The position numbers and the translations under genes were made by a program. Under the pieces are notes generated by a model, which saw only the letters and a list, made by a program, of their open reading frames with translations, ran no database searches and was not told the origin of the DNA. From assembly GCA_947628635.1 (NCBI GenBank), contig CANRAX010000001.1, forward strand, positions 1 to 29,773: a DNA stretch of 29,773 nucleotides, given 5' to 3'. Shown piece by piece: positions 11,212 through 24,157 of the stretch. Source of the DNA: an uncultured Bacilli bacterium (GTDB lineage: Bacteria; Bacillota_I; Bacilli_A; RF39; UBA660). The stretch's first letter is position 1. Every line of letters starts with the position of its first letter.

Positions 11212-12615
11212 ATGTCTAAAAATATTAAAGATAATGAAGAGAGTATTAAAAGTAAGCAAAAAAAGGAAGAAAAAAACAGTGTAGGTGAAAAAAATAAGGA
11301 TTTAAACCTTAGCATTTCAAAAAGTAATGAAAGTGCTAAGACTGATTTTGAAAATTTAAATTCCGATGAGAAGATATTTGGAGAGAATATTTCAGAAAGA
11401 AAGGAAAGCGCTGATAAAGAAAAATCCAAACTGAAAAAAGGGAAAAACTTCTTTAATATAATTATTATTTTTATAGTATTTTTTGTTTTTCTAGTAGCGA
11501 TTGCTCTTGTTTGTTTTAAATTATTTGATGTAGTTAGTTCTTATATTGATAAAGAAGGGAAAGAAAAAGTTGAACTGAAGTATGCCGAAACAGATAAAAC
11601 TACTAATAATAAGAATAGTGAAGGTATATATATTACTGATGTTTCTGAAGTTGTAGAAAATGTAATGCCATCTATTGTAGCTATTACAAGTAAAACGCTT
11701 ATTTCATCTGGTATGTTTGGACCTAATTATTTTGGGCAAGAGCAATATGCCAAGGGAGCTGGTTCTGGTATAATTGTAAGTAAAAATGATACAGATATTT
11801 TAATATTAACTAATAATCATGTAATTGCTAATGCCTCTGAATTGTCTGTTCAGTTTATTAATGAAAAAAGTTATGACGCAAAGGTTGTTGGAACTTCTGA
11901 TAAAAAAGATATAGCAATTATTTCCGTGTCTTTAAAAGATATTGATACCAGCACTTTAGAAAAAATAAAGATAGCTACAATGGGAGATTCAAACAAATTA
12001 AAAGTTGGTAATGGCATTATTGCTATTGGAAATGCATTGGGTTATGGTCAATCTGTTACAACTGGTGTTGTTAGTGCTCTAAATAGAGAAGTTTCTATTG
12101 ATGATTATAATAATAAGATGATTCAAATAGATGCCGCTATTAATGGGGGTAATAGTGGTGGAGCTTTATTAAATGGCAATGGTGAAGTTGTTGGAATTAA
12201 TTCTGCTAAGTATTCATCTAGTGCTTATAGTTCATCTGCAAGTATTGAAGGAATGGGATTTGCTATACCTATCTCTGATGTTAGTGAGCTTATTACTTCA
12301 TTAATGAACGGGGAAGGAGATAATAGTGCAACAATTGGTATTGAAGGCTATATAGTCGATGAAAATAATGCTCTTAGTTATAATATGCCTTCAGGATTTT
12401 ACATATCAAAAATTGTTTCTGGTAGCGGAGCAGATAAATCCGATTTAGAAATAGGTAATATTATTACGAAAATTAATGATGAAAAAATTGATGATTTAAG
12501 TGATATTCAAGATGTTTTAGATGATTTAAAAAAAGGTGATAAAGTTAAATTAACAGTAAGTTATGTAAAAAGTAGAGAATATCAAGACAAAGAAGTTGAA
12601 GTTACTCTTTCATAA
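11212..12615 (+). CDS. htrA: HtrA/DegP-family serine protease with one TM anchor and one PDZ domain
   Basis: Catalytic motifs LTNNHV, KDIAII and DAAINGGNSGGAL; C-terminal PDZ (G..IGDII-like LEIGNIITKIN). Confidence 0.93.
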   Translation: MSKNIKDNEESIKSKQKKEEKNSVGEKNKDLNLSISKSNESAKTDFENLNSDEKIFGENISERKESADKEKSKLKKGKNFFNIIIIFIVFFVFLVAIALVCFKLFDVVSSYIDKEGKEKVELKYAETDKTTNNKNSEGIYITDVSEVVENVMPSIVAITSKTLISSGMFGPNYFGQEQYAKGAGSGIIVSKNDTDILILTNNHVIANASELSVQFINEKSYDAKVVGTSDKKDIAIISVSLKDIDTSTLEKIKIATMGDSNKLKVGNGIIAIGNALGYGQSVTTGVVSALNREVSIDDYNNKMIQIDAAINGGNSGGALLNGNGEVVGINSAKYSSSAYSSSASIEGMGFAIPISDVSELITSLMNGEGDNSATIGIEGYIVDENNALSYNMPSGFYISKIVSGSGADKSDLEIGNIITKINDEKIDDLSDIQDVLDDLKKGDKVKLTVSYVKSREYQDKEVEVTLS

Positions 12616-12660
12616 AATATGGTTTTCATAGGTAAAAAAGAAATAATTTTGATTTCTTTT

Positions 12661-12699
12661 TTTAATGTTTTTTTAATATTTACTTAATATAATATTAAT
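12661..12699 (+). promoter_or_regulatory. Response-regulator box 3 with -10 (ABC permease promoter)
   Basis: TTTAAT-GTTTT-TTTAAT (12661-12677), 10 bp, TATAAT (12688-12693). Further 11-bp-period copies CTTAAT (12683) and ATTAAT (12694). Confidence 0.65.
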
Positions 12700-12720
12700 G
12701 TCAAAAGAGGAGGACAAAAG

Positions 12721-14169
12721 ATGTTTATATTAAAAAATGCATGGATTTCAATTAAAAGAAATAAGGGAAGAAATATTTTAATAGGAATTATTATTTTAAT
12801 TATTGCTTGTGCTTGTACGATAACACTGGCAATTAAAAATACAGCTGTTGATTTGATAGATTCCTATAAAAGTGCTTACGATAAGGAAGTAACTATTGGC
12901 TTTAACAGAGAGAATATGATGAAAGGCTTTGATCCATCTCAAGAAGAAGGAAGAGAAAGTGCAAGGGAGAAGTTTGATAATATTGCAAGTTATACCATTA
13001 GTGATGTTGAAAAATTTGCAGACAGTGATTATATCGAAAGTTATTATTATACCTATGGTGTCGGTTTAAATGGAAATAGCATAGAAAAAGCTGAAATTGA
13101 ATCAAATAATGATATGCCAAATGGATTTGGTCATGGAAGAGAAAATAATATGTCTTCTACTGATTTTACTTTAACAGGATATAGTTCACAAGATGCAATG
13201 AGTGAATTTATTAGTGGTGCTTATACAATGAGTGAAATAACTGATAACGCTTGGGATATTGCTTTTAATGGTAATTATATCTTTATTAATGAAGAACTTG
13301 CAAGTTATAATAATTTAAAATTAAATGATAAAGTAAAATTAGAAGATGAAGACGGAAATGTTTATGAGTTTGAAATTATTGGTATTTTTAAGGAAAATGA
13401 AGAAGATAATCAAGAGTCAATGTCTATGTTTTCTAATTCTGTAAATACAATAATAACTAATAGTGAGGCGGTTGTTAAGCTTACAGATGGAAATGAAAAT
13501 TTAAAAGCTTCTATTCATCCTACTTTTATTATAAATTCTTATGATAATGTGGAGAAACTTCAAGATGAATTTTATGAAAAAGGATTAGATGAAAATTTCA
13601 TATTACAAACAAATGAAGAGCTTGCTGAAAGTGGAGTTTCAAGCGTTAAAAACATTTCATCATTTTCAACATCTTTCTTAATTATTACACTTATTATTGG
13701 TGGAATTGTTCTATTTGTAATTAACATGATCAATATTCGTGAAAGAAAATACGAAATTGGTGTTTTGAGAACAATTGGTATTAGCAAATTAAAATTAACA
13801 ATGCAATTTGTAGCAGAACTTGTAATTGTTTCAGTTATTGCTCTTACATTGGGTGCAGGAATTGGAGCAGTAAGTTCTAAGGGGGTTAGTAATTCGTTAC
13901 TTGCAAATGAAATAAGTAGTAGTAATGAAAAAACTGAAGAAATAAATAAAAATTTTGGTGGAATAAATCATGATGGTGCTAGAGGCGGTATGCATGGTAA
14001 GGGTATGCCTGTTGTTCAAGCTTATGATTCTATTGATGCAGTAGTAGATATTAAAGTTTTAATAGAGTTACTTAGTATTGGACTTTCGCTAGTATTAGTA
14101 AGCTCAATTGCCTCAATGGTTAGTATTCAAAGATTTTCACCACTTACAATATTGAAAGAGAGGTCTTAG
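12721..14169 (+). CDS. MacB/FtsX-family ABC permease
   Basis: N-terminal TM, large extracellular domain, INIRERKYEIGVLRTIG motif and three C-terminal TM helices. RBS AGGAGG. Confidence 0.9.
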   Translation: MFILKNAWISIKRNKGRNILIGIIILIIACACTITLAIKNTAVDLIDSYKSAYDKEVTIGFNRENMMKGFDPSQEEGRESAREKFDNIASYTISDVEKFADSDYIESYYYTYGVGLNGNSIEKAEIESNNDMPNGFGHGRENNMSSTDFTLTGYSSQDAMSEFISGAYTMSEITDNAWDIAFNGNYIFINEELASYNNLKLNDKVKLEDEDGNVYEFEIIGIFKENEEDNQESMSMFSNSVNTIITNSEAVVKLTDGNENLKASIHPTFIINSYDNVEKLQDEFYEKGLDENFILQTNEELAESGVSSVKNISSFSTSFLIITLIIGGIVLFVINMINIRERKYEIGVLRTIGISKLKLTMQFVAELVIVSVIALTLGAGIGAVSSKGVSNSLLANEISSSNEKTEEINKNFGGINHDGARGGMHGKGMPVVQAYDSIDAVVDIKVLIELLSIGLSLVLVSSIASMVSIQRFSPLTILKERS

Positions 14170-22955: not shown

Positions 22956-23807
22956 TTATTTTGTTCTTCGCCACATATAAACTGTTACGTAAGGTTGAAG
23001 ATTATTTATTGTTGTAGCTGTTCCTGTAAAACTGTGAGTATGCCCATCACTAGTTGTTCCCTTACCAGCAGTACCTGTTGAAGTTGAGGTTGTTGAAATT
23101 GGATGAGTATGACCTCCTCCACCCCCTGATGAGCCGATATATGACAAGGCTTTAGGAGCACCATTTGCCCATCCATTTTTTACTAGCCATTGAAGACCCG
23201 TTCCTGTTTCTAATCCTAAGTTATTGTCATTCGAGTTTATTACTAATGCAGCACCCCCATGAACAAAGCTATGACTATGGCTTGGTATTTCTGCTATTGT
23301 TAAAGTATGTGAACCAGTTGTACTATCTACTTTATCATAACTGTGACTGTGACTTGGTATTTGACTTATTGTTAAACCCGTACTTCCTATTGAGCCACTT
23401 GGTGTATAGGAAACACTTTTTGCTCCTCCTGTCTTTCCAACTGTATTAAATTCTGTTTGACTACTGTCTATTCCAACCAAAGTTTGTCCTTTTCCATAGG
23501 CTTCCCATGTGCCTCCTAGAAATGATGAGGGATTTGTACTTGCAGTTGAAGTATAAATTGTTCCTACTGGATATATTTTATTTAAAAAATTAGTTAATTC
23601 ATTACTAAACTTTGTACAGGTTCCATCTATGGCGGCTTGTACATTATTTACGGCTAAGCTTGAATTATCTTCATAATAGACATCTTTACTATTTATAAGG
23701 GTTTGTGCTAATACGTATGAAGATGTTATTGAGATTATTATAGCAATTAAAAATATTATATAAACTTTTTTGTCTAATTTATTTTTGTTATTCTTTTGAC
23801 CTTTCAT
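22956..23807 (-). CDS. Signal-peptide-bearing protein with a phage baseplate/tail-fibre (Gp10-C/collar-like) domain
   Basis: Basic n-region, hydrophobic h-region and VLA/QT. IYPVGTIYTS...NPSSFLGGTWE...G.TGG start, four HxH doublets, and terminal NNLQPYVTVYMWRRT typical of phage fibre tips. Confidence 0.8.
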   Translation of the reverse strand: MKGQKNNKNKLDKKVYIIFLIAIIISITSSYVLAQTLINSKDVYYEDNSSLAVNNVQAAIDGTCTKFSNELTNFLNKIYPVGTIYTSTASTNPSSFLGGTWEAYGKGQTLVGIDSSQTEFNTVGKTGGAKSVSYTPSGSIGSTGLTISQIPSHSHSYDKVDSTTGSHTLTIAEIPSHSHSFVHGGAALVINSNDNNLGLETGTGLQWLVKNGWANGAPKALSYIGSSGGGGGHTHPISTTSTSTGTAGKGTTSDGHTHSFTGTATTINNLQPYVTVYMWRRTK

Positions 23808-23842: not shown

Positions 23843-23895
23843 ATACGCTTTGCGTATACTATAACAAATATATACGTAAAACACATAAAAGTCAA
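23843..23895 (-). promoter_or_regulatory. Promoter of the fibre gene with TACG/CGTA operator-like sites
   Basis: TTGACT (23895-23890), 17 bp, TATATT (23872-23867). Palindrome ATACGC-TTT-GCGTAT (23843-23857) just after the predicted start site; TACGTA (23873-23878) in the spacer. Confidence 0.55.
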
Positions 23896-23941: not shown

Positions 23942-24157
23942 ATGAGAATAAAAGATTTAAGAGAAGATAATGATTTACTACAAAAAAATGTTGCGGATGT
24001 ATTAGGAATTACACAAGCCCATTATTCTAGAATAGAACAAGGAATATATGAACTGTCTTATGAAGGATTAAAAAAACTTGCTATTTTTTATAATACAAGT
24101 ATTGATTATATTTTGGGATTAACTAATTATAAAGAACCATATCCAAGAAAAAAATGA
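23942..24157 (+). CDS. Small XRE-family HTH regulator (71 aa)
   Basis: RIKDLRED...QKNVADVLGITQAHYSRIEQG...LAIFYNTSIDYILG. RBS AAAGGTGG. Confidence 0.9.
   Translation: MRIKDLREDNDLLQKNVADVLGITQAHYSRIEQGIYELSYEGLKKLAIFYNTSIDYILGLTNYKEPYPRKK

Follow-up and report, generated by a model that had tools for sequence, protein, structure and literature searches.

The window analysed here is a stretch of 29,773 nucleotides (nt) on contig CANRAX010000001.1, which belongs to the metagenome-assembled genome (MAG) of an uncultured small-genome bacterium of the Bacilli from the rabbit gut (1.07 Mb, 26.9% GC, 116 contigs, 73% complete). The gene under study, P0001, is located on the minus strand and encodes a protein with an export leader, the body of which is related to the tip domain of a phage baseplate protein. 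It is one member of a multigene family with a common scaffold, an exchangeable distal tip and two types of promoter region. The open reading frame (ORF) of P0001 is intact, and a GGAGG ribosome-binding site is found upstream of its ATG.

The rest of the window is ordinary chromosome. It contains TsaE/TsaB/RimI/TsaD, an Fe-ADH, a FIST protein, a 71-residue helix-turn-helix (HTH) protein of the Xre family, P0001 itself, Bax1-I and DUF975/CmpB, and in addition a metallophosphoesterase, an arylsulfotransferase, a two-component system, HtrA and an ABC transporter. The earlier note had described the gene as a phage fibre gene with no phage around it, and the surroundings agree with this description. 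The neighbours are housekeeping genes, and the Phage_capsid, Phage_portal and tape-measure models find no match in the MAG, nor do the RHS repeat models; as the genome is incomplete, these negative scans, and that for reverse transcriptase described below, are no proof of absence. Housekeeping neighbours are found at four loci of the family. In a conspecific strain (L094:493-1923), a DDE transposase (IS240/rve_3-like) adjoins TsaD in place of the RimI/TsaB of the window, and the two strains differ in this respect just beyond the syntenic block.

The features of the locus are collected in the table. The leader, the NNVQAAID segment, the collar, the LTIxxIPSHSH pair, the Trp-containing segment, the GHTH pair and the C-terminus listed in the earlier note are all found in their places on the minus strand.

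Features of the fibre-tip locus. Positions are those of the window, and residue numbers (aa) are those of P0001.
Feature	Position	Strand	Evidence
P0001, exported Gp10_C-type fibre-tip gene, 283 aa	22956..23807, including stop	minus	ORF list, translation, PF21939 (E=1.5e-28), 2FKK (E=6.4e-16)
Leader, aa 1-34, MKGQKNNKNKLDKKVYIIFLIAIIISITSSYVLA/QT: Lys-rich n-region, hydrophobic run of ~20 residues, V-L-A/QT site	23706..23807	minus	Seen in all 5'-intact paralogues
Conserved neck, aa 35-78 (DVYY..NNVQAAIDGTCTKF.. helix; NVQAAIDGTC)	23574..23705	minus	63% mean pairwise identity; aligned with gp10 417-460
Collar part of Gp10_C, aa 79-145 (YPVGTIY...GGTWE...)	23373..23573	minus	Pfam and 2FKK alignment
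Outgoing limb, aa 146-180, two copies of LTIxxIPSHSH, HxH at 153/155 and 177/179	23268..23372	minus	Translation, DNA repeat, predicted interface
Hypervariable tip cassette, aa 181-227 (FVHGGAALVINSNDNNLGLETGTGLQWLVKNGWANGAPKALSYIGSS)	23127..23267	minus	Alignment of 94 homologues; strain-level swap
Returning limb and closing strand, aa 228-283: GGGGGHTHP, GHTHS, NNLQPYVTVYMWRRTK	22959..23126	minus	Aligned with gp10 573-601
Divergent 71-aa Xre-family HTH gene, presumed private regulator	23942..24157	plus	Pfam HTH_3, E=6.7e-13; 100% identical in conspecific strains
Promoter-like site, TTGACT-17-TATATT	23867..23895	minus	Consensus scan, 10/12 matches; a consensus match only
Operator-like inverted repeat, TTTACGTATA-12-TATACGCAAA, spanning the -10 box and the probable start site	23849..23880	minus	Sequence checked
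Palindrome ATACGCAAAGCGTAT, followed by TTAATTT	23843-23857	minus	Terminator-like hairpin by score, within the 5' leader of P0001

The two repeats of the outgoing limb, LTISQIPSHSH and LTIAEIPSHSH, are spaced 24 residues apart. At the DNA level they correspond to a repeat of 41 nt at 23264-23304 and 23336-23376, with 78% identity and a spacing of 72 nt. The Trp-containing middle segment reads GLQWLVKNGWANG. On the returning side, GHTH is located at residues 232-235 and 255-258, 23 residues apart, and the protein ends in the closing QPYVTVYMW strand. There are thus four His-x-His (HxH) motifs in P0001, at 153/155, 177/179, 233/235 and 256/258. In the family alignment His153 is invariant, and His155 is conserved in at least 90% of the sequences.

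Residues 75-282 match the Pfam family Gp10_C (PF21939) over profile positions 2-139 of 139, with an E value of 1.5e-28 and a score of 100.9 bits, where the cut-off is 27. When a profile is built from 94 homologues, it finds the C-terminal domain of T4 gp10, with matches to 2FKK and 5IV5 (E=6.4e-16 for 2FKK). Taken together, the two scores indicate that the resemblance is not due to chance. Two stretches are aligned with gp10. One is formed by the neck and the collar, and this alignment shows that the NVQ segment is also homologous to gp10, from residue 417 of that protein onwards. The other is the closing strand, where TSITNIQPYITVY of gp10 is paired with TTINNLQPYVTVY. As T4 gp10 has no HxH limb, the roughly 100 residues between LPxHxH and the closing strand represent an insertion relative to gp10.

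Other searches give a similar picture. The PHROGs matches are to tail and baseplate families, and the nearest phage proteins are tail proteins of Streptococcus, Blautia and Faecalimonas phages, for which the match begins at residue 60-72 and shows about 30% identity. A search of NCBIfam with P0001 finds nothing meaningful. With the monomer model, Foldseek finds 2FKK only among the structures of the Protein Data Bank (E=1.3e-3); the template modelling (TM) score of 0.2 is uninformative, since it was obtained with a single chain of an intertwined trimer. Metal-binding HxH needles are known from published structures of the fibre tips of T4 gp37 and gp12. The kinship with a phage fibre or baseplate tip domain that had been proposed for P0001 is supported in general, while the detectable homology is to the C-terminal domain of gp10 rather than to gp12 or gp37. 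No significant sequence match to gp12 or gp37 was found, and the best match to any fibre was to that of cyanophage A-1(L) (8KEC, E=0.14). The reading of the limbs as an HxH needle is drawn from the motifs and from their positions in the predicted interface, and is accordingly a putative one.

A homotrimer is predicted for P0001, as had been expected for a fibre. With three copies of residues 36-283 and an alignment, the interface score ipSAE (interaction prediction score from aligned errors) is 0.79 in each of three runs, compared to 0.00 for the best control. The predicted local distance difference test (pLDDT) for the partner chains is at least 83, and the contacts agree to 81-94% between the runs. 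In a calibration that used two copies and the proteins' own alignments, 20 of 30 proteins with a solved homo-pair structure reached the mark, as did one of 23 solved as single chains. The AlphaFold2 model of the monomer has a pLDDT of only 63, and such a low value is expected for an intertwined fibre.

The neck forms a helix in the monomer model (residues 53-78), and residues 56-78 are located in the predicted trimer interface. The tightest predicted contacts are between the closing strand (residues 272-278) and the collar (residues 105-114, including 107-112) of the neighbouring chain, and residues 84-88 are also involved. All four HxH motifs are among the predicted interface residues. The predicted homotrimer, with its HxH residues at the chain interfaces, fits the idea of a metal-binding needle without proving it. 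Another residue of this region is Cys64, in the GTCTKF segment (window positions ~23616-23618). It is nearly invariant in the family and is located in the predicted three-chain interface, where it could serve as a metal ligand or as a link between the chains.

The leader is genuine rather than an artefact of the start codon. It is present in all 5'-intact paralogues and in the 94 homologues, where residue -1 is Ala in 91 of the 94 and residue -3 is Val, Ala, Cys, Thr or Ser. The n-region has a mean net charge of +3.6, and the uncharged run has a mean length of about 19 residues, with a maximum of 24. Since the -1/-3 positions have the pattern of signal peptidase I, cleavage by this enzyme is favoured. 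An uncleaved anchor is possible, as the long hydrophobic region leaves room for it. In either case the body of the protein would be located outside the membrane, which is incompatible with assembly into a virion in the cytoplasm.

No lipobox is found among the 94 homologues, and LPxT[GAS] is present in 0 of the 94, although the genome encodes six to seven sortases. These sortases, together with a class A penicillin-binding protein (PBP) on a conspecific contig, indicate that the host has a Gram-positive wall. With neither a lipobox nor LPXTG, and with the -3/-1 pattern, the mature trimer may leave the cell instead of being anchored to it. Retention on the cell may be through an uncleaved leader or through non-covalent binding, or there may be none. 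Therefore, of the proposal of a surface or secreted adhesin, the export is borne out by the leader, while a role as adhesin is a matter of interpretation and release is possible.

P0001 had been taken for a single domesticated gene. It is instead one member of a large, lineage-restricted multigene family. The MAG of 1.07 Mb contains 21 ORFs or pieces of this family, 10 of them complete and 11 cut by contig ends, and this latter number indicates that the family breaks the assembly. In other genomes of the same genus, 60, 31, 25 and 4 matches are found in four, and none in three more. Some match to Gp10_C is present in 35 of 200 genomes of the order, and full-length, leader-bearing sets in multiple copies are confined to a few genera among the 200. 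Related contigs come from the rabbit gut (Lapin series), from the Hadza human gut and from a few ruminant or 'Tenericutes' bins. Literature searches on the family, on PF21939 and on RF39 with phase variation gave no description of this family in the papers covered.

The leader and neck form a module of their own (residues 1-78). It is rare, being found in 97 cluster representatives among 1.84 billion proteins, and nearly always at the N-terminus. When 79 leader-bearing representatives were scanned, Gp10_C was present in 47, and the other 32 had no Pfam family, from which it follows that the module also heads other, unknown C-terminal parts. Two contigs of the same MAG (C78:40-618 and C45:3-479) carry the leader and the NVQxAID neck, followed by a different C-terminal part without a Pfam family. 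Moreover, in P0150 (1231 residues) and P0199 (839 residues) the neck motif is found 4-7 times, as in the shafts of phage fibres.

The variation within the family is concentrated in the tip. Among the 94 homologues, the mean pairwise identity is 63% for the neck, 57% for the collar, 40% for the outgoing limb, 47% for the returning limb and C-terminus, and 33% for the leader. For the tip (residues 181-227) it is 7.7%, with a length of 26-62 residues. The suggestion that the head segment is swappable is supported by this distribution, the tip being the main variable region, and by a replacement with sharp borders between strains. The positional orthologue in strain L094, from another rabbit sample, shares the gene order of the window, with 99.2-100% identity for eight flanking proteins and 100% for the HTH protein. 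The fibre-tip protein itself is only 82.7% identical, because nt 535-685 of the gene are replaced. Beyond this segment the gene is identical or nearly so, and inside it the sequence is unrelated and eight codons shorter. L095 shows the same arrangement as L094.

A tip related to that of the window is also found at another locus. The conspecific contig L093 has 99.2% DNA identity to contigs C28 and C85 of the MAG. It carries a family gene in the order LemA, HTH, gene and PBP, which has 92% DNA identity to P0001 from codon 31 to the stop. The two tips are closely related (39 of 47 residues identical), and the leader and promoter of the L093 gene belong to its own LemA/PBP locus. Together with the replacement in L094, this arrangement indicates that tips move both between alleles and between loci. 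Within the MAG, a search for a donor of the window tip matched only the gene itself.

The pieces C28 and C85 are located at the flanks of the LemA/PBP locus in the MAG and have two further, different tips. For this reason they cannot be the two halves of one gene, and the bin either mixes strains or is misjoined at this locus. A diversity-generating retroelement was considered as a source of the variation and was rejected, as no RVT_1 match is present in the 73%-complete genome, and the tips are unalignable and range from 26 to 62 residues, whereas such an element would alter only adenine-templated positions and leave the length constant.

The regions upstream of the family genes fall into two classes, having either a divergent Xre HTH gene or a poly-G tract in the promoter spacer. 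Among 105 distinct 5'-intact family genes, 53 have a tract of G7-12 abutting the -10 box and 27 have a divergent HTH gene. The remainder comprises four genes in tandem behind another copy, 13 of other arrangements and eight with too little upstream sequence. P0001 has no poly-G tract and has an HTH partner instead.

The HTH gene next to P0001 is divergent and 134 bp away, and this pairing travels with the gene to other chromosomal contexts. The inverted repeat in front of P0001 is perfect in strain L095 (12/12-nt arms, one mismatch allowed). Among 28 HTH-gene pairs, HTH proteins of one class share a half-site across independent loci and genomes, and the half-site differs from class to class. 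Class ISQKAISNYE is found with TAGTCTAT and class ISTRHLQRIE with ACGACA, each at three loci, while class ISWRNLQRIE with ATTATGACA and class IKQQQYARYE with TGTGTT are each found at two. The class of the window HTH, ITQAHYSRIE, and the related SQQQYSRIE class have the half-site ACGTATA. This co-variation suggests that the HTH protein is a private regulator of the gene beside it. In addition, the palindrome ATACGCAAAGCGTAT could take effect in the RNA, either besides or in place of a role as half of the operator.

The poly-G class has a conserved promoter cassette, in which the tract lies precisely in the -35/-10 spacer, as in TTGACAagacccatc-G(9-11)-TATTAT. In the 40 poly-G genes with a recognised -35 box, the spacer is 18-20 nt. 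The genome, with 27% GC, contains 15 G/C tracts of at least 8 nt; 13 of these are in the promoter cassette of the family, and another drives a type IV pilin-like gene. The Logan contigs that cover two poly-G promoters of contig C106 break at the repeated cassette. In one contig of another sample there is one G fewer (L004:1037-1047), and this contig may be a paralogue. The counterpart of L102 in the MAG ends just before the cassette.

Two further observations concern such promoters. In contig C13 of the MAG (~11520-13400), the promoter TTGACAaacctacac-G9-TATAAT drives a gene for a protein of 605 residues that begins with a type IV prepilin motif (MFHKQKGFTLVELLVAISIM...), and control by a poly-G spacer is thus not limited to the fibre-tip family. 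At loci L022, L039, L068, L038 and L040 of sister species, the poly-G promoter is located 130-180 nt upstream of the fibre-tip gene. The conserved leader in between contains a short ORF (...aaggagaaagtggagtttaaag.gaattactATGaataagaaattaagtaag...) upstream of the gene and may add a further layer of regulation.

These observations are best explained if the family encodes exported, variable binding trimers for adhesion, recognition or antigenic variation, with exchangeable tips and a switch for each copy, and we assign this reading a probability of roughly 0.6. Each protein would be a Sec-exported homotrimer built on a phage fibre or baseplate tip fold, in which the C-terminal scaffold of gp10 carries an out-and-back HxH limb. 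The chromosomal family has expanded to tens of copies in uncultured small-genome gut Bacilli. Its scaffold (leader, neck, collar, HxH limbs and closing strand) is kept, and the distal tip is exchanged by recombination between alleles and loci. For P0001, the switch would be its divergent private Xre repressor, acting at the inverted repeat around the -10 box, while about half of the family genes would be switched by slipped-strand mispairing in the poly-G tract of the promoter spacer. A population would then display or release a changing subset of tip specificities. This variable repertoire would possibly serve adhesion to glycans on host or microbial surfaces, antigenic variation under pressure from antibodies or phage, or both. 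The receptor-binding needle repurposed as a cell-surface or secreted trimer, as proposed in the earlier note, is in keeping with the export leader, the non-prophage locus and the predicted trimer, while its role is assigned by interpretation.

A more specific version of this reading is tentative, and we consider it well short of an even chance. It holds that a phage receptor-binding tip has become a cellular recognition library, with tens of exported trimers on one scaffold and tips shuffled between loci by gene conversion. Expression would be set copy by copy through two orthogonal devices, the poly-G spacers and the mutually specific repressor-operator pairs. Each cell would therefore have a different, heritable but reversible set of specificities for glycans of the host or of partner cells.

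Several points weigh against the reading of the family as switchable binding trimers. The copy numbers are approximate, as the MAG is 73% complete and is fragmented at exactly these genes. The result for the trimer may in part reflect a memory of the solved gp10 trimers in the prediction model. Moreover, with neither a lipobox, LPXTG nor a recognisable wall-binding domain, the retention of a cleaved trimer on the cell is unexplained, and a freely secreted protein would be a poor adhesin. Repression by the HTH protein is suggested by the position of the operator and by the co-variation. With the assembled poly-G tracts the spacer is 18-20 nt long instead of 17, and switching by tract length at one locus is a proposal, as the contigs break there.

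Other functions and origins can be considered for the same proteins. In phage defence, the exported trimers would mask the wall polysaccharides of the producer or bind free phage ligands and thereby block adsorption, with the variety and switching of the tips tracking the phages. The domain is indeed a phage receptor-binding tip, binding to the producer itself would account for retention on the cell without an anchor motif, and a patchy distribution between sister species with strain-level tip swaps is expected under phage-driven selection. On the other hand, no defence system of this build is known (no PADLOC scan was made), nothing ties the tips to the organism's own surface, and the masking of receptors needs few specificities, not 20-60. 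We regard this explanation as unlikely. A slightly lower likelihood is given to a membrane-anchored variant, in which the leader would not be cleaved and would act as a signal anchor. The trimer would then be held on the outside of the membrane, under the wall or inside it, and would function as a variable sensor or provide a docking site for another exported component instead of being a free or distal adhesin. The length of the uncharged run is within the range of signal anchors, and with the short neck an anchored trimer would not project far. However, the strict Ala at -1 and small residue at -3 are needed by signal peptidase I and not by an anchor, and apart from this pattern the leader is only 33% identical.

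A weapon-targeting head is less likely again, and by a clear margin improbable in its own right. The trimer would in this case aim a toxin, or would itself be a lectin-like bacteriocin that binds an essential surface protein of rivals. Variable tips are typical of polymorphic weapons. However, the RHS models are without a match in the 73%-complete genome, there is no toxin or immunity gene beside P0001 or its orthologues in three contexts, and the family has its own Sec leader and no domain beyond the fibre tip. Finally, P0001 might be an ordinary tail-fibre gene, a remnant or component of a prophage or tailocin whose particle genes are elsewhere or lost, as its homology to phage tail and baseplate proteins would allow. 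This explanation is effectively excluded. The leader is conserved throughout the family, whereas phage fibres are assembled in the cytoplasm without Sec leaders. Moreover, the context is housekeeping at all four loci noted above, the phage models gave no match in the 73%-complete genome, and the ORFs are intact and kept in copies by the tens, every one of which has a promoter of its own.

The switchable binding trimers can be compared with several known systems. By homology the family is a member of Gp10_C, while by design it appears to resemble HxH needles, the contingency families of Mycoplasma and the MAT (mosaic adhesive trimer) fibres. T4 gp10 (PF21939; 2FKK and 5IV5; with the related heads of gp11 and gp12) shares the neck, the collar with YPxGxIY...GxW and the closing QPYITVY strand. 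Its trimer has been solved, while that of P0001 is predicted. In comparison, gp10 is a virion protein of 602 residues that is assembled in the cytoplasm and has neither a leader nor an HxH limb. The present family has a stand-alone domain behind a Sec leader, an out-and-back insertion of 100 residues, 2-7 HxH motifs and a hypervariable tip, and it is a cellular multigene family. The needles of gp37 and gp12 are alike in having HxH motifs on the outgoing and returning limbs and variable residues at the turn, and the His residues of P0001 are located in the predicted three-chain interface. They differ in that they have no significant sequence match to the family, for which metal binding is putative.

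For the mode of switching, the closest parallel is in Mycoplasma, where indels in the promoter spacer are an established on/off switch for the genes vlp, maa2 and vmm (PMC2268961). As in the case of M. hyorhinis vlp, and also of maa2 and vmm, there are many exported paralogues in bacteria that have reduced genomes and are related to the Bacilli. Each gene has its own promoter with a homopolymer in the -35/-10 spacer, and the length of the tract varies from copy to copy. The Mycoplasma families are, in contrast, lipoproteins whose tails are repetitive, and their tracts are poly-A or poly-T. In the present family the tract is poly-G, the phage-derived protein, a predicted trimer, has a leader of the signal peptidase I type, and a second class of copies, P0001 among them, has a presumed private Xre repressor; switching is suggested by the sequences. 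The lipoprotein anchor of the Vlp type is not found in this family.

MAT fibres of Bdellovibrio bacteriovorus are displayed on the surface, one member binds specific glycans, and 'tip swapping' has been proposed for them (PMC10769870). Compared by description only, the MAT superfamily has fibres of about 1000 residues in a Gram-negative predator. Their tip folds are different, and phase switches for single genes are not reported, whereas the present proteins have about 250 residues, are of the Gp10_C/HxH type and are found in gut Bacilli.

In the guts of animals and humans, uncultured Bacilli with small genomes are common, and their contact with the surroundings is almost unstudied. An exported family that occupies several per cent of a 1.1-1.4-Mb genome, has one variable tip and has switches gene by gene is a strong candidate for the interface with these surroundings, which makes it relevant to gut microbiology and to the evolution of phages and their hosts. 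The conserved scaffold with its exchangeable tip of 26-62 residues is a natural display platform, and the small Xre repressors with distinct operators are a ready collection of orthogonal regulator-operator pairs. If the interpretation is true, the family would show clearly that cells have recruited a receptor-binding module from a phage. Only the MAT fibres of Bdellovibrio would precede it in this respect, and it would be the first such family that is coupled to contingency switches.

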